In this document: positions 39,804 through 57,984 of the stretch, piece by piece
How the letters are laid out: every line of letters starts with the position of its first letter
Numbering within the stretch: position 1 is the stretch's first letter
Assembly: GCA_040220235.1 (NCBI GenBank)
Contig: JAVJTO010000004.1
Length of the DNA: 64,000 nt
Reading direction: 5' to 3' (one strand)
Origin: Coleofasciculus sp. B1-GNL1-01
GTDB taxonomy: Bacteria; Cyanobacteriota; Cyanobacteriia; Cyanobacteriales; Coleofasciculaceae
Notes under the pieces: model-generated
The model's input: the letters and a program-made list of their open reading frames with translations, nothing else
Told to the model about the DNA's origin: nothing
Databases searched by the model: none
Made by a program: the position numbers and the translations under genes

Positions 39804-41609
39804 GTGAAACCATTAGCAGACCTCAAAGCCTTAATTCAACAAACTGAAGCAAAAGGGGGAAGCCAAGACCCCAGTCTGGCGAACTTATATGCTCAACTCG
39901 GACAACTCTACCAAAGCCGACTGGAAAACGGGGAATTTGAGGATTACCAGCACGAACTTGCCCTCGCCGTTGAATATTTCCATAAAGCGGTTGACCTGCA
40001 ACGACGATTGGGGTTAGACATTGACTTAGCGACAACGCTGAATCATCTGGCGGAACTCTACAGAACCCAAGGACGCTATGACCAAGCCGAACCGCTTTAT
40101 CTGCAAGCCTTAGATTTAAGGAAACGTAACTTAGGAGAGAACCATCCTGATGTCGCCACCAGCCTCAACAACCTAGCGCGACTCTACCACTCTCAGGGAC
40201 AATATCCCCAAGCCGAACCTCTCTATCTCCAAGCCTTAGACCTAAGGCAACGTAACTTAGGAGAGAACCATCCTGATATCGCCATTAGCCTCAACGATAT
40301 CGCCGCCCTCTACTTCTTCCAAGGGCGCTACAACGAAGCTGAATCTTTTTACCTGCAAGCGTTGGACTTAAGGAAACGCAATTTAGGAGAGAACCATGCC
40401 GATGTTGCTACCAGTCTTAACAACCTCGCCTTACTTTACTTCTTACTGGGACGCTATGACCAAGCCAAACCGCTTTATCTGCAAGCCTTGGAACTGAGGA
40501 AACGCTTACTGGGACGGAACCATCCCGATGTTGCCACTAGCCTGAATAATTTGGCAGAACTCTACAGAACCCAAGGACACTACACCCAAGCCGAACCCCT
40601 CTATCTGCAAGCCTTGGAGGTAATGAGGCGTCTGCTAGGAGATGAGCATCCCGATGTGGCGACTAATATGAACAATCTAGCTGCACTCTATTTCTTCCAA
40701 GAACGCTACGACGAAGCCGAACCCCTCTATCTGCAAGCCTGGGAAATCAGGAAACGCTTATTCGGTGATAATCATCCCGATGTGGCACAAAGCCTCAACA
40801 ACTTAGCCGGACTCTACTTCTCTCAAGGACGTCAGGGTGAAGCCGAACCTCTCTATCGCCAAGCCTTGGAAATCTGGCAACGTTTATTGGGTGATACTCA
40901 TCCGGATATCGCCACCAACCTGAATAATTTAGCATTACTCCACCACTCCCAAGGACACTACGAGGAAGCTGAACCCCTCTATCGCCAAGCGTTGGACTTA
41001 AGGAAACGGTTATTCGGCGCGAACCATCCTGATGTAGTGACCAGCTTGAACAACTTAGCCTTGCTCTACCATTATCAAGGACGCTACGAGCAAGCCGAAC
41101 CTCTTTATGTGGAGGTGTTGGATGTGGGTAGACAGTTATTAGGAGAGGAGCATCCCGATGTTTTAACCAGCCTGAATAACTTAGCCGCACTCTATAAAAA
41201 TCTCGCCGAACTTTATTCCACGCAGGGACGCTACGATGAAGCCGAACCTCTCTATCTGCAAGCCTTAGAGTTGCGGAAACGCTTACTGGGAGATGAACAT
41301 CCCGATGTAGCACAAAATCTGAATAATTTAGCCATACTCTACTTCTTTCAAGGACGTCACGACAAAGCCAAAGAGTTCTATTCCCAAGCTTGGGAGTTAG
41401 GAAAACGCTGGCTAGGGGATGAGCATCCAGATGTGGCACAAAATTTGAATAATTTGGCAGGACTTTATTCGTCTCAAGGAGAATATGAATTAGCCGAACC
41501 CCTTTATGTCCAAGCGTTGACGATTTGTGAAGAACGACTCGGCGCTAATCATCCGACTACAGCAACAATCCGGAAAAATCTTGATGATCTGCGTGCAGCG
41601 ATGGGATAA
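39804..41609 (+). CDS. TPR protein with about 12 kinesin-light-chain-type 42-aa repeats
   Basis: HPDVATSLNNLA.LY..QGRY..AEPLY.QAL repeats; N-terminus matches an internal segment of 42088-44121. Confidence 0.88.
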   Translation: MKPLADLKALIQQTEAKGGSQDPSLANLYAQLGQLYQSRLENGEFEDYQHELALAVEYFHKAVDLQRRLGLDIDLATTLNHLAELYRTQGRYDQAEPLYLQALDLRKRNLGENHPDVATSLNNLARLYHSQGQYPQAEPLYLQALDLRQRNLGENHPDIAISLNDIAALYFFQGRYNEAESFYLQALDLRKRNLGENHADVATSLNNLALLYFLLGRYDQAKPLYLQALELRKRLLGRNHPDVATSLNNLAELYRTQGHYTQAEPLYLQALEVMRRLLGDEHPDVATNMNNLAALYFFQERYDEAEPLYLQAWEIRKRLFGDNHPDVAQSLNNLAGLYFSQGRQGEAEPLYRQALEIWQRLLGDTHPDIATNLNNLALLHHSQGHYEEAEPLYRQALDLRKRLFGANHPDVVTSLNNLALLYHYQGRYEQAEPLYVEVLDVGRQLLGEEHPDVLTSLNNLAALYKNLAELYSTQGRYDEAEPLYLQALELRKRLLGDEHPDVAQNLNNLAILYFFQGRHDKAKEFYSQAWELGKRWLGDEHPDVAQNLNNLAGLYSSQGEYELAEPLYVQALTICEERLGANHPTTATIRKNLDDLRAAMG

Positions 41610-41947: not shown

Positions 41948-42087
41948 GACTGTAAGCGAATGAACCCAAAGCACTGGAATTTGGGCATAAGCTGCATAGT
42001 CTTAATGTTCTAGAGTATGGCAATCGTCAAAACCGATGAGGTTCACCGAATCGTTCAAGAGCGATTACAAGATTGGAGGTTAATTTC

Positions 42088-44121
42088 ATGATGACGGAGT
42101 TGTCTGACCCGACAGTTCATAATGAACAAACGTATGGCGATTTACTGACAGCGATTCAAGCCAGTCAAGGTAAGTTGAGTGTAATCCTAGCGGTTTGTGA
42201 TGATATCCATTTTCGCAACCAACTGATTGAACGCTATGAAAGCGAACTCGTCGCCTCTGTGCGATCGCATCGCGTTACCTTGGTTAAGGATGACCCGAAC
42301 CTGAGCCACGCCATTACTGAACTCGTCCAAACCGATGACGATTTACCTCAGGGGGGAAACGCCGTTGTCACCGTGACGGGTGCGGAGCAACTTCTCTGGC
42401 TCAAATTCGACGCCCAGCATTCAGAACAGGAAAATTTTTTCGCCTCCTTACCAGAAACCCAAGACGCATTATCCGTCTTGGCTTGTCCACTTGTCCTGTG
42501 GCTAACTCACCAACTAGAGAGTCAGCTAAGTCAAAACGCCCCAGAGTTCCAAAATTGGTGTCAAGCTGTCTTTCGCTTCCACTCCAAAAAAACAACTGCT
42601 ATTCCCATTCAAAACATTGAGTCATTCCGCCATCTTATCGAAGAAAGCGACGCTTGGGATCAAAGCCTATCAGTCTTTCCCGTCGCCGATGTCAACGCCT
42701 TGATTGAGTACACCAAAGCCAAACGCGGCGTCAACGATTCAAATTTGGCAACCTTATATGCTCAAGTCGGACACCTTTATCAACGACGCTTAGAACAGGG
42801 TGAATCTTTAGATTATCCCCAAGAACAAGCCTTAGCCGTTGAGTATTTGAGTCAAGCCATTCAGCTAAAAAAAGAACTCGGCTTAGAAACAACCTTAGCT
42901 GAAACGGTGAATAATTTAGCCGAACTCTACCGACTGCAAGGACGCTATAGGGAAGCTGAACCTCTTTATTTAGAAGCCTTAGAACTCAGAAAAAGTTTGT
43001 TGGGCGATGCTCATCCTGATGTCGCCACCAGCCTCAACAACTTGGCAAAACTTTACCAGGCTCAAGGACAGTACGCTCAAGCCGAACCTCTTTATCTGCA
43101 AGCCTTGGACTTGAGAAAACGCTTACTGGGTGATGATCATCCAGATCTCGCTCATAGTCTCAACGATTTAGCCACCCTCTATTTTTGTCAAGGACGCTAT
43201 GAGGACGCCGAACCCCTTTATTTGCAAGCTTTGGACTTGAGGAAACGTAACTTAGGCGATGATCATCTAGAGGTGACAATCAGCCTTAGCAATGTCGGAT
43301 TACTCTATCATTATCAAAGACGCTACGAAGACGCCGAACCTCTTTATCTGCAAGCCTTAGACATCGAAAAACGCTTACTGGGCGAGGATCATCCGGATGT
43401 AGCCACCACCTTGAACAATCTCGCCGCCCTTTATAAGTCTCAAGGACGCTATGAGGATGCTGAACCCCTTTATCTGCAAGCCTTGGACTTGCAAAAACGG
43501 TTATTGGGAGAGAACCATCCCGATGTCGCCACGAACCTTAACAATCTTGCTGCTCTGTACTTCTCTCAAGGACGCTATGAGAAAGCCGAACCTCTCTATT
43601 TGCAAGCCTTAGACATCAGAAAAGGTTTATTGGGAGAAAATCATCCTGATGTGGCACAAAGCTTAAATAATTTGGCAGGACTTTATTTCTCTAAAGGACC
43701 CAATAACAAAACCGAATCGTTTTATTTAGAAGCGTTAAATATTCGGAAACGCTTATTGGGAGAGAACCATCCTGATGTGGCAACTAGCCTGAATAATTTA
43801 GCTTTACTCTATCATTATCAAGGACACTACGACAAAGCCGAACCCTTCTATCTGCAAGCCTTACATCTGAGAAAACGTTTATTTGGAGATATCCATCCTG
43901 ATGTAGTAACCAGTATGAATAATTTGGCATTACTCTATCATTATCAAGGACGCTACGAGCAAGCCGAACCCCTCTATCTCCAAGTCTTGGAACTCGGTAA
44001 ACGTTTATGGGGAGAAGACCATCCCGATGTCGCGCTCAGTTTAAATAATTTGGCAGCCCTTTACAAGTCTCAAGGACGGTATGAACAAGCGAATTACTTA
44101 ACTTCCAAGCTATGGAATTGA
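42088..44121 (+). CDS. TPR protein with N-terminal degenerate P-loop-like domain; last repeat frameshifted
   Basis: N-domain (ASQGKLSVILAVCD...VTVTGAEQL...PLVLWL...APEFQNW), 42-aa TPRs; the repeat consensus continues out of frame after EQA. Confidence 0.82.
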   Translation: MMTELSDPTVHNEQTYGDLLTAIQASQGKLSVILAVCDDIHFRNQLIERYESELVASVRSHRVTLVKDDPNLSHAITELVQTDDDLPQGGNAVVTVTGAEQLLWLKFDAQHSEQENFFASLPETQDALSVLACPLVLWLTHQLESQLSQNAPEFQNWCQAVFRFHSKKTTAIPIQNIESFRHLIEESDAWDQSLSVFPVADVNALIEYTKAKRGVNDSNLATLYAQVGHLYQRRLEQGESLDYPQEQALAVEYLSQAIQLKKELGLETTLAETVNNLAELYRLQGRYREAEPLYLEALELRKSLLGDAHPDVATSLNNLAKLYQAQGQYAQAEPLYLQALDLRKRLLGDDHPDLAHSLNDLATLYFCQGRYEDAEPLYLQALDLRKRNLGDDHLEVTISLSNVGLLYHYQRRYEDAEPLYLQALDIEKRLLGEDHPDVATTLNNLAALYKSQGRYEDAEPLYLQALDLQKRLLGENHPDVATNLNNLAALYFSQGRYEKAEPLYLQALDIRKGLLGENHPDVAQSLNNLAGLYFSKGPNNKTESFYLEALNIRKRLLGENHPDVATSLNNLALLYHYQGHYDKAEPFYLQALHLRKRLFGDIHPDVVTSMNNLALLYHYQGRYEQAEPLYLQVLELGKRLWGEDHPDVALSLNNLAALYKSQGRYEQANYLTSKLWN

Positions 44122-48477: not shown

Positions 48478-48561
48478 CAAATGACAAATGACAAATGACA
48501 AATGACAAATGACAAATGACAAATGACAAATGACAAATGACAAATGACAAATGACAAATGA
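48478..48561 (+). repeat. (CAAATGA)12 short tandem repeat overlapping the methyltransferase start
   Basis: Twelve perfect heptamers counted; preceded by a TAAGTAGG...AAACCCTTAC element end (48415-48478). Confidence 0.95.
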
Positions 48562-49726
48562 CATCTGTACAACCGTTGAGTTATTTTGCGGGATTGGAGG
48601 ATTCCGGATAGCGGCGGATCAGAGAAATATAGCCACAATCTGGGCAAATGATCGGTGTCCAAAAGCCTGTCAAGTATACCGCGATCGCTTTGGAAAGGCA
48701 CAATTACATCAGGGTGATATTTATCAACTCGTTGATGAAATTCCACCTCATGATCTGTTAACGGCTGGTTTTCCCTGTCAACCGTTCAGTAGTGCGGGCA
48801 AAAAAAAAGGAGTACGAGATCCACGCGGTCATATTTTTCAAGTGATTGTTGATGTCCTGAAAAAACACAAGCCCCAGTTTTTCATCTTAGAGAATGTTAA
48901 ACGCTTGTTATCGATGGAGGAAGGGACTCATTTTGCCACGATACTCAGTGAGTTAGCGCATTTGGACTATACGATTGAGTGGCGTTTGGTCAACGCTATG
49001 CATTTCGGTTTACCTCAAAATCGTCAACGAGTTGTCATCCTGGGAACCTTAGACAAGGATACAAAGGATAATTTTCCCAATATCAGACTTGCCTCAACTG
49101 AAAATATCGCTGAGTTATCCGACTCAACGTTTCAAACCCTGACTAATATTGGACAATGGACAAAAATAAAAGACCACGGTAATAGATTTCCGACGTGGGG
49201 ACTCGCCCAAACAGGTCGTTTTTTTGGCTACAACTTTGCCCAATTTTATCTAGCTACGCCGATTGTTCCATTACGGGCAATTCTTGAGTCAGATGTTGAT
49301 TGCCAATTTGATTTTACTGAGTCTACGTTAAACCGTTTACAAACCAGTACCCCAGTTAATAATTTCGTTCAAGGTGTACAAATCCTCTACAATCAAAGTG
49401 GAGGAGCGCGAATGGGTTACACTGTATTTGGTATTGATGGTGTTGCACCAACACTTACCTCAACAACGAGTCGCCACTATGAGCGTTATAAAATCGGTAA
49501 TCAGTTCCGCCGTCTGACTAATGTAGAATATGCTCGCATTCAAGGGTTTCCAGATGAACATTGTGCTGGGATATCTATCTATGATCAATATGCTCTTTTC
49601 GGAAATGCCATTCCCCCGGTTATGGCTGGGTGGGTTATGGATTGTATCTTAGAAAATAAGAGCGTCCAACTTAAAACACCTAAATTTGAACAACTATCAC
49701 TTTTCTCTATGACCGATGCTTTCTAA
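48551..49726 (+). CDS. DNA (cytosine-5) methyltransferase
   Basis: Motifs I (ELFCGIGG), IV (GFPCQPFS), VI (ENV), VIII (QNRQR), IX (RRLT..E.ARIQGFP) and X (GNA). Confidence 0.95.
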   Translation: MTNDICTTVELFCGIGGFRIAADQRNIATIWANDRCPKACQVYRDRFGKAQLHQGDIYQLVDEIPPHDLLTAGFPCQPFSSAGKKKGVRDPRGHIFQVIVDVLKKHKPQFFILENVKRLLSMEEGTHFATILSELAHLDYTIEWRLVNAMHFGLPQNRQRVVILGTLDKDTKDNFPNIRLASTENIAELSDSTFQTLTNIGQWTKIKDHGNRFPTWGLAQTGRFFGYNFAQFYLATPIVPLRAILESDVDCQFDFTESTLNRLQTSTPVNNFVQGVQILYNQSGGARMGYTVFGIDGVAPTLTSTTSRHYERYKIGNQFRRLTNVEYARIQGFPDEHCAGISIYDQYALFGNAIPPVMAGWVMDCILENKSVQLKTPKFEQLSLFSMTDAF

Positions 49727-50705
49727 AGAAGAATTACGCGCCATATTAAAGGAATCACTGGATACAATAATTCAGGACGTTAATCGCGCTCTAAATGGAG
49801 AAAACACGGAACAATTAGTAGATGTATTAACTCGTGTGGGACAAGGCGGAAAACTACCGAAATGGTATGAGCAGTTACGAACTCAGCATACATTGCCTAA
49901 CTTAGATGGTAAGACAATTGGTAGTGTTATTGAAATGTTGTTAATTGCGGTACTCGAAAAGATTATATTTCAAGGTCTTGAGATACCGCCATTACGGGTT
50001 AATCCAGCGCGAGGAGTGGACTTTCCCGATTTAGATCTGGGTATTAAATCCCCTTCAGAAAACTACTGCACCAGTGAACCCTTTTTCTCTGCCTATGAAA
50101 GATTACTGGGTTCTGAGTATGATGTGCTGGTTCTACTCACTGACTACCAAACTGCTAAGAAAAATCCACCATTGAGACTGCAAATTATTAAGTTTAAGTA
50201 CCTCTACAAAACTCAGCTAGCAGATTATCGGCTTTGCCAAATTGCTAAAAAGCATCGAGAGTGGTTGGTAACCGAAAACGAATCTTGGGCAAAGAAGGTA
50301 TTTCGATTTCTAGCTTATGTGAATCAAAGTGACTGGCGTGCCAAACAACTGCTGCGTTTGTTGGACTGTCTTCAGGATGCGACATCAGTACACCGTTATA
50401 TTCAGCAGGCTGATGAAGATTTTCAAAAAATTAATAAAAAACGCATTGCCAAAGATGCTGAACCCATTCCCCGATCAGATATTGAATCGTTACACAAAAT
50501 AAATTCTATTCAGCCGTTTTATCTAGGTGTTATTGATGCCGCCGATAATTGGGTGATCGAGATGCAGAAGGACTTAGCGAGATTCCCTAATAGTAATGAG
50601 TGGTCACGTCTTTTGACCAGTCCATTGGATGGTCAAATTGGCATGAGTCCGGCGTTGCAGTGGCGATATAATTTCAGTCGCGTTTTTGGGGTGAATCAGT
50701 CTTAA
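49716..50705 (+). CDS. Putative type II restriction endonuclease
   Basis: Overlaps the MTase by 11 nt; E...VDFPDLDLGIKS PD-(D/E)XK-like segment; no other family recognised. Confidence 0.6.
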   Translation: MLSKEELRAILKESLDTIIQDVNRALNGENTEQLVDVLTRVGQGGKLPKWYEQLRTQHTLPNLDGKTIGSVIEMLLIAVLEKIIFQGLEIPPLRVNPARGVDFPDLDLGIKSPSENYCTSEPFFSAYERLLGSEYDVLVLLTDYQTAKKNPPLRLQIIKFKYLYKTQLADYRLCQIAKKHREWLVTENESWAKKVFRFLAYVNQSDWRAKQLLRLLDCLQDATSVHRYIQQADEDFQKINKKRIAKDAEPIPRSDIESLHKINSIQPFYLGVIDAADNWVIEMQKDLARFPNSNEWSRLLTSPLDGQIGMSPALQWRYNFSRVFGVNQS

Positions 50706-50778
50706 TAACGAGTAGAATAAAGTATCCCTAACTCAATTCTGGGGCTAGGGACAAGGTTACAGCTAAATCTAAGATGGT

Positions 50779-52152
50779 ATGAGTATAGATTTACTGGCAT
50801 TTTTTAAGGCAACAAATCCGGGTCAGACGATTAATATCGCTGATCCAGACGATCGCAAATACTATATTGACTTCTCTCCGGTTCGGGGTGGGACGGTTAT
50901 TGAGGAGTTGAAGGAGAATATTACCATATTCTATGCGAATCAGCCGAGTTGTGATTTGTTTACGGGACATATCGGCTGTGGCAAATCTACGGAGTTACTG
51001 CGGCTGAAGGCGGAATTGGAGGCGGAGGGGTTCCATGTTGTTTATTTTGAGTCGAGTGATGACTTGGAAATGGCAGATGTGGATATTGCAGATGTGTTAC
51101 TGGCGATCGCACGGCGGATTAGTCAGAGTTTAGCAGATGTGGCGATCGCGGAACCCCAGGGATTGAAGCGGTTGCTGAAACGGACGGCGGAACTGTTGCA
51201 GACGGAGTATGATTTATCGGAGGTGGAGTTAGGCTTGCCGAAAATGCCAGGGATTCCCGATGTGAAAGTGAAGGCGAATGACAAAGGGGCGTTGTCTTTA
51301 GCGTTCGGGATTGGTAAGATTACGGCTAAGGCACGAGCGGATTCGGGATTGCGAGAACGGCTGAATCAGTTTTTGGGACCGAAGAAAGCTGAGTTATTAG
51401 CGGCGATTAATCAGGAATTGATTGAACCTGCGATCGCGCAGTTGCAACAGCAGGGGAAACAAGGATTAGTCGTGATTGTGGATAACCTGGATCGGATTGA
51501 GGGTCAAACCAAAGGTTGGGGGCGATCACAACAGGAATATATTTTTATTGATCAGGCAGAATATTTGCAAAAGTTTAACTGCCATGTTGTTTATACCATG
51601 CCCTTGGCGTTAAAGTTTGCGGATGAATATGCGCGGTTAACTCAGCGATATAAGGAAGAACCCAAGGTTTTGCCGATGGTACAGGTACAGCAGGTGGATG
51701 GGAGTGACTGCGAGGAGGGGATGGCGTTACTGCGACAGATGGTTCTGGCGCGGGCGTTGCCGGATTTGGACGCACAAGGGCGGTTAAATCGGGTGAATGA
51801 CATTTTTGATCATCCAGAGAGTTTAGACCGCTTGTGTCGCGTCAGTGGCGGTCATGTGCGGGATTTATTACAACTGTTGATCCAATGGTTGAAAAAGGAT
51901 CTCAAACAAGGGCGATTGACTCGTGAAACGTTGGAGGGTTTGATTCGCAGCCGTCGTAATGAAATGACGCTTACCATTGATGATCACGAATGGGGGTTAT
52001 TGCGAAAAGTTCGGGAACGGAAGAAAGTGAGTGGGGATGATGGGTATCAGAAATTAATTTACAGTCGGCTGGTGTTTGAATATCGCGATCGCGGCGAGTC
52101 TTGGTTTGATATTAATCCGGTTTTGGCAGAGGCTAAGGAGTTAAGGGAATAA
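50779..52152 (+). CDS. P-loop ATPase of the cyanobacterial ATPase + TPR/WD40 pair type
   Basis: Walker A FTGHIGCGKS, Walker B VIVDNLDR, SGGHVRDL, WFDINP. Confidence 0.85.
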   Translation: MSIDLLAFFKATNPGQTINIADPDDRKYYIDFSPVRGGTVIEELKENITIFYANQPSCDLFTGHIGCGKSTELLRLKAELEAEGFHVVYFESSDDLEMADVDIADVLLAIARRISQSLADVAIAEPQGLKRLLKRTAELLQTEYDLSEVELGLPKMPGIPDVKVKANDKGALSLAFGIGKITAKARADSGLRERLNQFLGPKKAELLAAINQELIEPAIAQLQQQGKQGLVVIVDNLDRIEGQTKGWGRSQQEYIFIDQAEYLQKFNCHVVYTMPLALKFADEYARLTQRYKEEPKVLPMVQVQQVDGSDCEEGMALLRQMVLARALPDLDAQGRLNRVNDIFDHPESLDRLCRVSGGHVRDLLQLLIQWLKKDLKQGRLTRETLEGLIRSRRNEMTLTIDDHEWGLLRKVRERKKVSGDDGYQKLIYSRLVFEYRDRGESWFDINPVLAEAKELRE

Positions 52153-53372: not shown

Positions 53373-56300
53373 ATGTCGCAGCTACCTGATATTACACCGG
53401 AGAATCAAACCGAACTTGAGGAACTGGCGTTGACGCTGGACGCTTTTCAGGGTCAGTTTTTGCTGGTTTTTGCCCGATGTAATTATGACAGAGTGCGATC
53501 GCGTCTGATTCAAGTCCTCCAGGATTCGTCTCCTTTGAACATTCGCACGATTACGCTGAACCCTGATGATACGGCGCTATATCAGCGGATTCAGGGGGAA
53601 TTGCAGGGGGAAATTTCAAAGCCTCTCTCCTCGCAGGAGAGAGGTTTGGAGAGAGGTTTTCCAAATCCCGTGAATAGTCAGGATAAACCGGGGGCGCTGA
53701 TGGTTTTGGGGTTGGAGTCGGTGCTATCTCTGGAGAGGATGCTGGCGGGGGCGGATTTGGTGCGGGAAGAGTTTCGTCACCATTGTCCGTTTCCGGTTGT
53801 GGTTTGGGTGACGGATTCGGTGAAGGCGCAATGGATGCAGTTTGCCCGTAATCTGGAAAGTTGGGGCGTGAGTAGTCGGTTTACGATTAGCCGTGGGGAG
53901 TTGGCGGCGTTTATTAAAGGGAAGGCGGATCAATGGTTGGCGGATGGGTTGAATTTAACCGAGACGGAGTGTATTGAATTTAGGGGAGAATTAGAGGCGG
54001 CTGAAGGGGAGTTACAGGTAGAGGATAATGGGTTAGAACCGGAATTAGCGGCGGCGTTATTCACATTATTGGGAATTTGTCAAGAACAACAGGGAGAGAT
54101 TCAAACGGCGATTGATTATTTTGAGCAAGCCTTGGGATGTTGGCAGGAATTGCAACGTTTTGAGTATGAAGGGATTGTTTTAAGGGAGATGGTTTATGGT
54201 TATTTCTGCCAAATTAATCGGATTCAACCTGCGACAATTTCTAGGGATGACTATAATCAGATTCAAGCTAAAATTAAGGACTCTATTCAGCAAGCATTAA
54301 CTGCCTTTCATCGGGCGCAACGTCCGGATTTAATTGCTGATTCGATTGGGGTATTTGGTGCGGTTTTGCGGGAGTTGCAGGATTGGCAACAGTTGCAAGA
54401 GTTGGCGGAACAGGCGTTGGTGTTTGACCAAGGGGAAAATCGCCGGGATAAATTGGCGTTGGATTATACGTTTTTGGCTGATGTTGCTTTGGCTGAAGAA
54501 CGTTGGCAAGCAGCGAAGGAGTTGGCGGAAGCGGCGTTAAATCAGGTTGAAGCAATTGCGCCGGGGGAAGAGATAGAGGTAAAAAGTAGATGCTATTGGA
54601 TTAAAGCGCGATCGCACGTTAATTTAGGTCAATGTTCGGCGGCGATTGAACAGTTAGAATTTGCCCATGGTATCAGTCAACCGTTATCCTCTCCTCGGCT
54701 TTATCTGGATATTTTAGGCGATTTACATGATCTCTACTGGCAGACAAAAGATTATCTCAACGCCTTTAAAATTAAGCAGGAACGGCAAACCGTTGAAACC
54801 CAATTAGGATTAAGGGCGTTTATCGGTGCCAGTCGCATTCCATCAACTGTCGGGGCGGGGGCGGTAGGGGCGCACCGACGTGCGCCCTCATCTCCTCCTC
54901 AATCTCCCGCATCTTCCCCTCTTCCCATCGCCTCAGAAATTATCGCCTGGGGGCGGGAAAAAGATGTGCGAGAATTAGTTGAACGGGTGCAACGTTCTGA
55001 TCATAAAGTTATTGTCATCTATGGTTATTCTGGCGTAGGTAAAAGTTCTTTAGTCAATGCTGGACTCATCCCAACTCTACACCATACTACCGTCAGTGGA
55101 CAACGCATCATCCCAATTTTGAGCCAAGTTTATACCGATTGGGAACGAGAATTAGGACAGCAATTAACCGCCGCGCTAGAAACACAAAATATTTCTATCA
55201 CTCAACCCCTTGATTCTAAAACTGCAATTTTAGCCGCCTTGCGTCAGAGTGAAACGCAGCAGGTGCGAATTGTGTTAATTTTTGACCAGTTTGAGGAGTT
55301 CTTTTTTGTTTCCGATGACAAGGGTAACAAGAATAAAATCTTTGAGACTGATTTTTTTGACTTTTTAGGTCAGTGTCTAGACATTTTGTCCCTGACGGTG
55401 ATTTTTTCTATTCGCCGAGATTACCTCTATTATTTAGTAGACCAACCCGGAATGGGAAGTTATGACCTGTTGAGTAAGAATAGTCTCTATAAAATTTCTA
55501 ACTTAACACCAGAGGAGGCACAAAACTTACTCGAACAACTGACCACACGGTCTAGTTTTAAATTGGAATCGGCGTTAATTGAACAACTGGTGCAGGATTT
55601 AGCGGGAGATTATCAGAAAGTACGCCCGATTGAGTTACAGGTTGTCGGGGCGCAACTGCAAGCTGAGGGAATTAGAACCTTAGCGGAGTATCAACAGTTT
55701 GGCACTAAAGAAGAATTGGTGCTGCGCTATCTGGCGGAAGTGGTGGAGGATTGCGGCGCAGAAAATCAGCCCGTGGCGGAGGTGCTGTTGTATTTGTTGA
55801 CCGATGAGAAAGAGCGGCGACTGCTGAAAACTCGTGGGGAGTTGGAGGAGGAGTTAAAGGATTTTGTCACAGTAGCGGCGAGTCAGTTGGATTTAATTTT
55901 AGAGATTTTAGTGTTATCGGGGTTAGTTTTTATTGTCCCGGATACGCCGGATGACCGCTATCAGTTGGTGCATGATTATTTAGTGTCCTTTATTCGCCAG
56001 CAGCAAGAGCCAAAGATACAAGAAATTATTGCCCAACTGAATCGGGAACGGGAACAGCGTCAGCAGTTAGAGCGAAGTATTGAACAGGTTCGGGGAGAGT
56101 TACGCTTGGTTTTAGAGGAACGAGAACGGGTGATGGTGGAGGTTAGGGAAGCAAAGAAGTCTTTGGCGCAAGTGGAAGCAGAACGAGAAGAAGCCTTGAA
56201 AGGAACAGAATTGGAACGGTTGGGTACATTGGCTCTCAGACAATTTAACTATACTCAAATTCCGGCATTACTCACCGCGATGCGAGCGGGTAAGGAGTTA

Positions 56301-57482
56301 AAAGCGATTGTTAAAGACCGACCACTTGATCAGTATCCTGCCTATAGTCCCCTCTTAGCACTACAACAGATTTTGGATCAAATTCGCGAGCGAAATCAAC
56401 TGCGCGGTCATGAAGATTCGGTTTGGAGTGTCACTTTTAGCCCCGATGGAGAGCAAATTGCTAGCGCTTCATCTGACGGAACGGTGCGGTTGTGGGATAA
56501 AAAGGGCAAAAAATTAGCCGTCCTTCGCGGTCATGAAAATTGGGTTTGGAGTGTCACTTTTAGCCCCGATGGAGCGCAAATTGCTAGCGCTTCGTGGGAC
56601 AAAACCGTGCGGTTGTGGGATAAAAAGGGCAAAAAATTAGCCGTCCTGCGCGGTCATGAAGATTCGGTTAGGAGTGTCACTTTTAGCCCCGATGGAGAGC
56701 AAATTGCTAGCGCTTCCGATGACGGAACGGTGCGGTTGTGGGATAAAAATGGAGACGAATTAGCCGTCCTTCGCGGTCATGAAGATTCGGTTTGGAGTGT
56801 CACTTTTAGCCCCGATGGAGAGCAAATTGCTAGCGCTTCGTGGGACAAAACCGTGCGGTTGTGGGATAAAAAGGGCAAAAAATTAGCCGTCCTTCGCGGT
56901 CATGAATCTTCGGTTAGTAGTATCACTTTTAGCCCCGATGGAGCGCAAATTGCTAGCGCTTCATCTGACGGAACGGTGCGGTTGTGGGATAAAAAGGGAT
57001 CCGAATTAGCCGTCCTGCGCGGTCATGAAAATTGGGTTAGGAGTGTCACTTTTAGCCCCGATGGAGCGCATATTGCTAGCGCTTCTTGTGACAAAACCGT
57101 GCGGTTGTGGGATAAAAAGGGCAAAGAATTAGCTGTCCTTCGCGGTCATGAATCTTTGGTTAGGAGTGTCACTTTTAGCCCTGATGGAGAGCAAATTGCT
57201 AGCGCTTCGTGGGACAAAACCGTGCGGTTGTGGGATAAAAAGGGAGCCGAATTAGCCGTCCTGCGCGGTCATGAAGATTGGGTTTTGAGTGTCAGCTTTA
57301 GCCCCGATGGAAAGCAAATTGCTAGCGCTTCAGGAGATGGAACCGTGCGCTTATGGCGGGTGGAGACGTTAGATGACTTGCTGGTTCGCGGTTGCCACTT
57401 GTTGCAGGACTATCTCCGCACCCATCCCGATGTCAGTGATCTCAATAAGTTTTGTGCAGGGGAATTAGGGGTGGCTGAATAA
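53373..57482 (+). CDS. NLR-like protein: degenerate P-loop domain, TPRs, nSTAND1-type NTPase, coiled coil and 8 WD40 repeats
   Basis: GYSGVGKSSLVNAGL, IFDQFEEFF, RPIELQVVGAQL, YQLVHDYL; GH...WD repeats with a 123-bp period. Confidence 0.88.
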   Translation: MSQLPDITPENQTELEELALTLDAFQGQFLLVFARCNYDRVRSRLIQVLQDSSPLNIRTITLNPDDTALYQRIQGELQGEISKPLSSQERGLERGFPNPVNSQDKPGALMVLGLESVLSLERMLAGADLVREEFRHHCPFPVVVWVTDSVKAQWMQFARNLESWGVSSRFTISRGELAAFIKGKADQWLADGLNLTETECIEFRGELEAAEGELQVEDNGLEPELAAALFTLLGICQEQQGEIQTAIDYFEQALGCWQELQRFEYEGIVLREMVYGYFCQINRIQPATISRDDYNQIQAKIKDSIQQALTAFHRAQRPDLIADSIGVFGAVLRELQDWQQLQELAEQALVFDQGENRRDKLALDYTFLADVALAEERWQAAKELAEAALNQVEAIAPGEEIEVKSRCYWIKARSHVNLGQCSAAIEQLEFAHGISQPLSSPRLYLDILGDLHDLYWQTKDYLNAFKIKQERQTVETQLGLRAFIGASRIPSTVGAGAVGAHRRAPSSPPQSPASSPLPIASEIIAWGREKDVRELVERVQRSDHKVIVIYGYSGVGKSSLVNAGLIPTLHHTTVSGQRIIPILSQVYTDWERELGQQLTAALETQNISITQPLDSKTAILAALRQSETQQVRIVLIFDQFEEFFFVSDDKGNKNKIFETDFFDFLGQCLDILSLTVIFSIRRDYLYYLVDQPGMGSYDLLSKNSLYKISNLTPEEAQNLLEQLTTRSSFKLESALIEQLVQDLAGDYQKVRPIELQVVGAQLQAEGIRTLAEYQQFGTKEELVLRYLAEVVEDCGAENQPVAEVLLYLLTDEKERRLLKTRGELEEELKDFVTVAASQLDLILEILVLSGLVFIVPDTPDDRYQLVHDYLVSFIRQQQEPKIQEIIAQLNREREQRQQLERSIEQVRGELRLVLEERERVMVEVREAKKSLAQVEAEREEALKGTELERLGTLALRQFNYTQIPALLTAMRAGKELKAIVKDRPLDQYPAYSPLLALQQILDQIRERNQLRGHEDSVWSVTFSPDGEQIASASSDGTVRLWDKKGKKLAVLRGHENWVWSVTFSPDGAQIASASWDKTVRLWDKKGKKLAVLRGHEDSVRSVTFSPDGEQIASASDDGTVRLWDKNGDELAVLRGHEDSVWSVTFSPDGEQIASASWDKTVRLWDKKGKKLAVLRGHESSVSSITFSPDGAQIASASSDGTVRLWDKKGSELAVLRGHENWVRSVTFSPDGAHIASASCDKTVRLWDKKGKELAVLRGHESLVRSVTFSPDGEQIASASWDKTVRLWDKKGAELAVLRGHEDWVLSVSFSPDGKQIASASGDGTVRLWRVETLDDLLVRGCHLLQDYLRTHPDVSDLNKFCAGELGVAE
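56403..57360 (+). repeat. Eight near-identical 123-bp WD40-coding repeats
   Basis: Units start at 56403, 56526, 56649, 56772, 56895, 57018, 57141 and 57264. Confidence 0.93.
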
Positions 57483-57984
57483 GGGTTGTGGTGAAGGGAA
57501 GCAGGGGGAGACGTGTAATGGCGCATTCGTCTATGAGTCTCCACTACTCATCGTTGCCATTTGTATATGGGGTTTTGAGTCTGTGATGCGAGCGTTGATG
57601 GCGCTAAAGCGCAACTACGAACTAAAAATCTGCGAAATCAGTGTTTTGGTTCAACGTCCAAAATTCATAAAATGGGGCAGAACTCTGGTCTGACTGTTGA
57701 TAATTTTGCTGACGGGTAGAACTTCCCTGGGATGGCGACATTAAAATAGTTTCCAACACTTGTTCCACGCGATCGCACGATCAAAAAAAACCGTGTGACC
57801 TTTGCTGGGTAATGACTTTGGCTTAAAAACAGGACGATTGAACTAAGAGCTTGTAACATCTCGTTACAATTAACTTGGCGCGATCGCACTCGACCTGCTG
57901 AAAATAAGAAGGATAGGGTTAGGGGAACCCTTCACCCTATACCATCTAAAATGATGAACGTCAGATTCAAGGAGTATCCGCCTA

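Follow-up and report, generated by a model that had tools for sequence, protein, structure and literature searches.

Sensors made of near-identical repeats and carried on STAND ATPases are thought to provide a route to fast changes of specificity, a route that has been worked out only in fungi. A gene of this architecture is described here from the filamentous cyanobacterium Coleofasciculus sp. B1-GNL1-01, at 53373-57482 on the forward strand of a 64,000-nucleotide stretch of contig JAVJTO010000004.1 (assembly GCA_040220235.1), referred to below as the window. In 69 WD40 units of Podospora, positive selection has been reported at codons 7, 9, 25 and 27 around the invariant codons 8 and 26 (Paoletti 2007, PMC1805685). 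Among bacteria, highly repetitive WD40 proteins are reported to be enriched in Cyanobacteria, with diversity at predicted hotspot sites (Hu 2017, PMC5587647), and WD and TPR units 80-90% identical to one another are reported in bacterial NOD-like receptors (NLRs), for which the fungal regime was proposed (Dyrka 2020, bioRxiv 10.1101/2020.01.06.895854). In a 2026 survey such repeats are linked with ATPase domains, among them nSTAND types, across all domains of life (PMC13449251), and nSTAND1 proteins have been placed among predicted conflict systems (PMC8195603, PMC10907252). Another reading was given to four WRAP domains, taken to be independently amplified on the ground of positions that set every blade of one propeller apart from all other blades; these propellers were also proposed to act in innate immunity (Pereira and Lupas 2022, PMC9218822). 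A search of literature listings and of passages from the papers cited here found no codon-level demonstration in bacteria. The orthologue series of the window gene allows the two published readings, concerted evolution and repeated fresh amplification, to be told apart.

The gene ends in a WD40 array that probably serves as sensor propeller to an NLR-like STAND switch from the nSTAND1 clade, with five fast-changing positions in each blade making up a lineage-specific binding surface. Eight units of 123 bp occupy 56400-57383 on the forward strand, with starts at 56400, 56523, 56646, 56769, 56892, 57015, 57138 and 57261; framed from the Leu of LRGHE in the open reading frame (ORF) 53373-57482, each is exactly 41 codons long. 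Tandem Repeats Finder reports a period of 123, 7.6 copies, 87% matches and 0 indels at 56403-57331. The original prediction, a model's reading of the bare letters, had set the array at 56394-57360, a few bases off at each end, and had described eight 123-bp repeats nearly identical even at synonymous sites. The eight near-identical repeats are there; their identity at synonymous sites was slightly overstated, as the proportion of synonymous differences (pS) among units 1-7 is 0.13, with such differences at codons 1, 15, 24, 28, 36 and 40. These seven units share 86-98% of their DNA. Unit 8 is only 67-72% identical to the others and keeps their first 32 codons, because its last nine codons run into the conserved C-terminal tail. 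In a scan of the genome with the same program this is the most homogeneous WD40 array (87% matches), and the next ones have units of their own.

Amino-acid differences between the units fall where the prediction had read them. The two residues after GHE are DS, NW, DS, DS, SS, NW, SL and DW from the first unit to the eighth, the V-x-S position holds W, W, R, W, S, R, R and L, and the variable pair of SAS-x-D-x reads S/G, W/K, D/G, W/K, S/G, C/K, W/K and G/G. The hypervariable codons of each unit are 6, 7, 9, 25 and 27. Calculated after Nei and Gojobori among units 1-7, the ratio of non-synonymous to synonymous divergence (dN/dS) is 8.3 at these five codons and 0.08 at 33 other codons; among the 13 internal units of the closest orthologue, that of genome G003 (working labels of this kind denote the material compared), it is 4.3 at the five codons and 0 elsewhere. 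Counted as minimum events over these 20 internal units, seven from the window and 13 from G003, there are 24 non-synonymous and 10 synonymous changes. Codons 7, 9, 25 and 27, a set fixed a priori from the fungal literature, are four of the 41 codons and take 13 of the 24 non-synonymous events (binomial p = 6e-8), which is far beyond chance and bears out the claimed concentration of change at a few positions. With codon 6, which was added post hoc, the count is 16 of 24 (p = 7e-10). The loops of the bottom face show no enrichment (5 of 24 events, p 0.63), and a second tier of variable codons, 18 and 35-38, corresponds to the a-b and c-d loops of that opposite face. The proposed likeness to the fungal HNWD repeats holds at this level, since codons 7, 9, 25 and 27 are the variable codons there as well. 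Diversity is high: across the four orthologues with the unit type of the window, 32 internal units contain 30 distinct combinations of the five residues, and entropy in these units peaks at positions 9 (2.63 bits), 25 (2.60), 6 (1.83), 37 (1.67) and 7 (1.33).

The eight units are predicted to form one closed 8-bladed propeller. The AlphaFold2 model, built from the single sequence, has a mean predicted local distance difference test score (pLDDT) of 85.9 and a predicted template modelling score (pTM) of 0.81, and assigns strand a to codons 8-13, b to 19-24, c to 29-33 and d to codon 38 through codon 1 of the next unit. Codons 6 and 7 lie in the d-a loop, codon 9 starts strand a, and codons 25 and 27 lie in the b-c turn. 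In the model these positions share one face of the propeller and are not scattered over the structure. The best whole-domain fold matches are likewise 8-bladed propellers, with Tako8 at a template modelling score (TM) of 0.94 and a root-mean-square deviation (rmsd) of 1.4-1.5. The nearest solved sequence is 2YMU (phmmer E 3e-205; Foldseek E 2e-38; 52% identity in the fold alignment).

In the genome, 8.66 Mb in 172 contigs, 126 matches represent dozens of nSTAND1/WD40 paralogues that are about 40% identical to the protein. No near-identical unit is found elsewhere in it by blastn of the unit: the best match outside the gene is 77% over 77 bases, and unit sharing among paralogues of the HNWD kind is rejected on this ground. 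Orthologues of 83-95% identity are present in four of eight same-genus genomes; G005 carries a 74%-identical fragment with a stop, and the remaining three have, to this query, only paralogue-level matches of about 38-56%. A protein search adds five further orthologues, which NCBI names nSTAND1 domain-containing NTPase (nucleoside triphosphatase), Coleofasciculus sp. The seven full-length orthologues have 8 units (window, P0003 and P0006), 13 (P0004) or 14 (P0009, G003 and G004), and the partial P0005 has at least 6. Two distant relatives from other genera have at least 16 units (G050, whose locus begins inside the frame; 85% mean DNA identity) and 14 units (G013; 83%); each has its own homogenised unit type, with variation at the same positions as in the window array. 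Unit numbers cluster at 8, which is one propeller, and at 13-16, which is probably two. Both the number of units and their residue combinations vary between orthologues of sister species, so that the order of repeats is not fixed at this level of comparison. Homogenisation is uneven across the genus, because the G004 array is more differentiated (pS 0.45 among units; dN/dS 0.63 at the five codons and 0.15 elsewhere) and P0004 and P0009 likewise carry more differentiated arrays.

Recombination between repeats, which the prediction had invoked as the source of reshuffled specificity, has left traces. Of the 66 informative site pairs in the window array, 42 show all four gametes; so do 10 of 55 in G003, where units 8 and 9 also represent a recent duplication with units 11 and 12, one difference each. 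Window and G003 units have 18 polymorphic nucleotide sites in common, of which those at nt 72, 84, 108 and 120 of the unit are synonymous, and a linked block TGG-GAC-AAA-ACC ... GGC-AAA (the W-D-K...G-K haplotype) occurs in units from each of the two species. The internal units of the two arrays are separated by one fixed synonymous difference: codon 12 (nt 36) is ACT in all seven window units and ACG in all 13 of G003. The terminal unit is orthologous and almost unchanged, differing at 2 of its 123 bases. Outside the repeats, the gene has a synonymous divergence of 0.31 between these two species, distributed as a mosaic (pS 0.07-0.65 per 100 codons). Units compared at the non-hypervariable codons have a pS of 0.13 inside the window array, 0.05 inside that of G003 and 0.15 from one array to the other. 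These sequences fit unit types that predate the species split, with ongoing exchange and homogenisation in each array and differences retained at the five codons. The shared polymorphisms, the shared haplotype, the single fixed difference and the four-gamete exchange favour concerted evolution over separate amplification. The pattern as a whole fits concerted evolution with diversification of the ligand face, the regime described for the HNWD genes.

The protein that carries this array has 1369 residues (53373..57482 with its stop, forward strand) and is encoded by the only long ORF of the region in the ORF list and translation. Its order is an N-terminal alpha/beta domain, a TPR-like solenoid, an nSTAND1 NTPase, a helical linker and the 8-bladed propeller; over the whole protein Pfam reports nSTAND1 (PF20703, E 1.2e-35) and eight WD40 repeats (E 1e-111). 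The NTPase module spans residues 526-905 (54948..56087) and scores 124-126 bits against a cut-off of 27.1, covering profile positions 17-370 of 379. It contains an intact Walker A motif, GYSGVGKS, at residues 551-558 (55023-55046) and a Walker B-like VLIFDQFEE at residues 634-642 (55272-55298). NB-ARC reaches only 20.3 bits over 37 residues, below its cut-off of 23.5, and Pfam scans of the whole protein and of its halves give neither a NACHT nor a HET domain. A strict NLR has a central NACHT or NB-ARC domain, and the NTPase here belongs to a different STAND clade, nSTAND1; the protein is not a homologue of HET-E or NACHT proteins. A second hallmark of an NLR, a C-terminal repeat sensor that forms a superstructure, is present as the eight WD40 units and their 8-blade model. 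In the position where a strict NLR has its N-terminal effector or adaptor domain, the protein has the alpha/beta domain and the TPR-like region described below, neither of them assigned to an effector family. A charged helical linker, a putative coiled coil, and a pre-array helix precede the array at 56088..56399, with a weak prefoldin match at residues 897-954 (E 0.076). A C-terminal helical tail (VRGC...; 57384..57479) follows it, is conserved in orthologues and paralogues and anchors the last unit; the model shows it as two helices of low confidence.

The N-terminal half was modelled with AlphaFold2 as residues 1-505 from an alignment of 15 orthologues and paralogues (mean pLDDT 82.9). Residues 9-170 (53397..53882) form an alpha/beta domain of five strands alternating with helices. 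It has no Pfam match at E<=5 beyond scattered noise in seven homologous N-termini and the related upstream TPR protein, and NCBIfam and PADLOC, like Pfam, return no family for residues 1-215. The ESM Atlas gives only unnamed cyanobacterial clusters for the domain, and Foldseek and VIA-align searches with the 505-residue model return only TPR proteins, the alpha/beta domain not having been searched alone. That the domain is a degenerate copy of the protein's own NTPase is ruled out by an hhalign probability of 2.6%. The N-terminal module as a whole has a homologue in the N-terminus of a TPR protein encoded 9 kb upstream at 42073-44121 (hhalign 97%, E 5e-11), and its alpha/beta and helical parts may be an adaptor shared by the two proteins. 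This upstream protein and a second one at 39804-41609, both TPR_10/TPR_12 proteins, are internally repetitive with 42-residue units. The TPR-like alpha-solenoid of the window protein itself spans residues 223-477 (54039..54803; Pfam TPR_12 E 4e-10) and matches the LGN/Pins TPR domains with a Z of 22.8 and an rmsd of 4.2 over 289 aligned residues. It is followed by a low-complexity Pro/Ser/Ala linker (54852..54926), with pLDDT <50 from residue 484.

Orthologues differ further by in-frame insertions. A small dispersed repeat with a hairpin-like core lies in frame at 53610..53681 (residues 80-103) and is modelled as a disordered loop, with pLDDT <50 at residues 81-102. By blastn it has 42 matches in the genome including itself, the best 25 of which are 88-98% identical over 29-68 bases. 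It is present in P0003, P0004 and P0005 and absent from G002, G003, G004, P0002, P0006 and P0009, and is thus an insertion polymorphism that keeps the frame open. Other short repeat-like inserts replace the Pro/Ser/Ala linker in some orthologues; in L024, L025 and P0003-P0005 its place is taken by a proline-, serine- and leucine-rich stretch with a short internal repeat. An in-frame repeat-like insert of about 40-60 residues is also seen in a TPR loop of L023, L025, L015, P0006 and P0009. Several small inserts, mobile or repeat-like, are accommodated by the gene. Another addition falls between NTPase and propeller (window 56143-56229), where G002, G003, G007 and P0006 have about 220 extra residues: a hydrophobic, transmembrane-like (TM-like) segment of about 20 residues, with basic residues before it and a long charged helix after it. 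Contigs of the sequencing runs X1, X2 and X10 have 634-676 extra letters there. P0003 and P0005 have the TM-like segment with a short linker, and the window gene, P0002, P0004, G004 and P0009 lack it. If the segment truly spans the membrane, the sensor would lie outside the cytoplasm in those alleles; hydropathy does not discriminate, as it is 2.16 over 19 residues for this segment and 2.05 for a buried segment of the NTPase.

Directly upstream of the gene lies a type II restriction-modification pair (48551-52152) made up of a C5 methyltransferase followed by a 329-residue endonuclease that overlaps it by 11 bases; a 457-residue P-loop NTPase with a weak mads_8 match comes next within the same interval. 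This neighbourhood is defence-like. The gene itself is flanked by ycf66 and, on the other strand, by an Rpn/DUF4351-like gene. Downstream, a short intergenic element at about 57583-57624 shows several-fold higher contig depth in all four related sequencing runs compared and is a dispersed repeat, because loose ends on both sides lead to different sequences; HIP1 (GCGATCGC) sites lie near it at about 57768 and 57880. The genome that contains the window (G000) also holds many other highly internally conserved coding repeat arrays, TPR, HEAT-like and others, for example at C149:17753-20633, C39:29832-31284 and C17:63114-64809; one TPR array has 22.9 copies with 85% matches.

By analogy with Apaf-1, Avs/bNACHT and the fungal HNWD proteins, a ligand bound to the d-a/b-c face would release the NTPase, the protein would then oligomerise, and the N-terminal alpha/beta and TPR module would pass the signal on. 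The binding surface of each lineage would be built from a shared stock of unit types. The N-terminal module may act through like-with-like contacts, which are conceivable because the module is also found on the neighbouring TPR protein. An immune role is suggested by this analogy, by the restriction-modification context and by the published placement of nSTAND1 proteins. The original prediction of a bacterial immune or allorecognition receptor is therefore upheld in its evolutionary half and not in its functional half: the NTPase is nSTAND1 and not NACHT, the N-terminal 215 residues have no Pfam match, and PADLOC gives no Avs or bNACHT match.

Several observations weigh against a diversified sensor of this kind. 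The dN/dS values compare units that exchange sequence and so depart from a standard phylogenetic estimate, synonymous sites in the hypervariable codons number only about 2.5-3.6, and codon 6 is a post hoc member of their set. At the Ser codon 24, beside codon 25, all four TCN codons are in use, and the choice co-varies with codon 25 (e.g. 56469-56474), which suggests linked old variation that hitch-hikes with a selected site, or a local mutational effect, and not selection alone. The comparisons are between species representatives and not strains. No partner gene is evident among the flanking genes, no effector-type domain is recognised in the protein, and the four PADLOC matches are weak or repeat-only (a WD40-type repeat model), none of them Avs, bNACHT or system-defining. 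Precomputed Pfam labels show the same N-terminus and nSTAND1 core with HisKA/HATPase, CHASE2, dCache or GTPase in place of WD40 (P0011, P0025, P0039, P0078), and these alternative C-termini fit general signalling as well as defence. The assembly adds its own cautions: no public sequencing run reaches half of the sampled words (the best share is 0.26), and the contigs of four related runs fragment inside the array, one of them joining unit 1 to unit 8. One-unit forms, with the start of a unit fused to the tail of the terminal unit, occur in G002 (L024), in P0002, which falls in the same 90% cluster as the window protein, and in one X3 contig (window 56470-57341); they may be assembly collapse or a real deletion to a single blade.

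The alternative C-termini bear on the possibility that the array evolved as described and yet serves a switch for a cellular or environmental cue, its variable face tracking a fast-evolving endogenous partner. The absence of any recognised effector, toxin or adaptor domain agrees with such a switch, as do the N-terminal module held in common with the TPR protein 9 kb upstream and the dozens of paralogues in the genome. This explanation is nonetheless unlikely. Diversifying residues on the top face, changes in copy number, patchy presence (four of eight genomes) and a restriction-modification neighbourhood are typical of conflict genes, and it is among predicted conflict systems that the published surveys cited above place nSTAND1 proteins.

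It is improbable that each lineage re-amplified its array from a single blade, so that the differences between units would be young mutations under relaxed constraint, with neither diversifying selection nor exchange. The nearest solved structure, 2YMU, is itself a Nostoc WRAP propeller, the distant relatives each have their own unit type, and the one-unit forms would represent the original condition, provided that they are real. The difference at nt 36 separates all window from all G003 units, which is the sign of independent amplification as described in PMC9218822. The 18 shared polymorphic sites, four of them synonymous, and the multi-site haplotype mean that at least two unit types predate the split, and a fixed nt 36 then requires homogenisation. 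Incompatibilities under the four-gamete test are common, the five codons have a dN/dS well over 1 and radical replacements (W, R, G, S, D), and the bottom-face loops are not enriched. For this lineage, the data argue against the published reading of independent amplification from one blade.

Misassembly of unit number and order in the window and its relatives, which would make the differences in copy number and order non-biological, is more doubtful still. Near-identical 123-bp units are hard for short-read assemblers, and the broken contigs of the related runs, the one-unit forms in two assemblies and the want of a run holding the exact window sequence all speak for it. The array nevertheless stays exactly in frame with eight distinct units, no unit-bearing contig is left over in the genome, the 14-unit array of G003 lies inside a 519-kb contig, and the counts (8, 13-16) are compatible with the fold; the pattern at the hypervariable sites does not depend on unit order at all. 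Targeted mutagenesis of the variable codons, for example by a diversity-generating retroelement (DGR), is rejected as extremely improbable although DGR-diversified nSTAND1 sensors exist in other multicellular bacteria, since the codon states are a small recurring set shared between species, the changes show no specificity for adenine and involve every one of the four bases, the genome has no second near-identical copy of the unit that could serve as template, and the DGR targets described in the text of the same source are C-type lectin (CLec/FGE) variable domains and not WD40 (PMC10907252).

The sensor-propeller reading can be extended, tentatively, to a locus that re-tiles its binding face by intragenic exchange of units. 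Old unit types would be homogenised in each lineage, the array would jump between one 8-blade and two ~7-blade propellers, and in some alleles the TM-like segment would place the sensor on the other side of the membrane. Given sufficiently frequent exchange, specificity could vary among the cells or filaments within a population, and the locus would then be the repeat-based equivalent of the DGR-diversified nSTAND1 sensors. The gene lends itself well to population studies with long reads and to a search for the ligands of such cyanobacterial propellers.

The closest described likeness is to the HNWD/NWD proteins of Podospora anserina (HET-E, HET-D, HET-R), which are reported to carry, like the window protein, a STAND NTPase followed by highly conserved WD40 units of about 41-42 codons. 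Both show diversifying change at codons 7, 9, 25 and 27 flanking codons 8 and 26, in the d-a loop and the b-c turn, and both show exchange of units and a varying unit number. Unlike them, the window protein has an nSTAND1 and not a NACHT NTPase, has no HET domain and is not accompanied by RIP (repeat-induced point mutation), and its units belong to a single gene and are not, as in HNWD, exchanged among paralogues. Allorecognition belongs to HNWD; no such phenotype is known for the window protein.

The likeness to the WRAP protein Npun_R6612 (2YMU) lies in a repetitive WD40 array C-terminal to a cyanobacterial STAND ATPase. That array, as described, has 14 blades with 10 point mutations and no synonymous change, and was read as a one-shot recent amplification. 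The window array differs in that its units vary at synonymous sites and include mosaics, and in that unit types recur from species to species. Pfam scans of the seven neighbouring ORFs detect no TIR domain, and no TIR-STAND partner gene lies beside it in the operon-like coupling of the WRAP branch. With Avs/bNACHT (PMC10907252) the gene shares a tripartite plan of N-terminal module, STAND NTPase and C-terminal repeat sensor; it differs from them in matching no PADLOC model, in having no nuclease or known effector, and in a sensor that is a WD40 propeller and not TPR. Near-identical repeats in those proteins are not mentioned in the cited source, as far as its text describes them.

Hotspot diversity and the link to an ATPase are common to this gene and to the highly repetitive or internally highly conserved (HR/HIC) WD40 and TPR arrays surveyed in bacterial NLR-like proteins. 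Compared with those surveys and the published proposal, as far as their text describes, the present case is a worked orthologue series in which codon-level, recombination and copy-number evidence come from one gene. The pattern is already published for fungal and bacterial receptors (for bacteria in 2017, 2020, 2022 and 2026), and the gene is a new example and not a new kind of system. What it adds is evidence for concerted evolution over fresh amplification and copy numbers that cluster at 8 and 13-16. It is a compact bacterial case, in which the same four codons vary as in the fungal receptors and a comparison of sister species reveals both the exchange of units and the change in their number.

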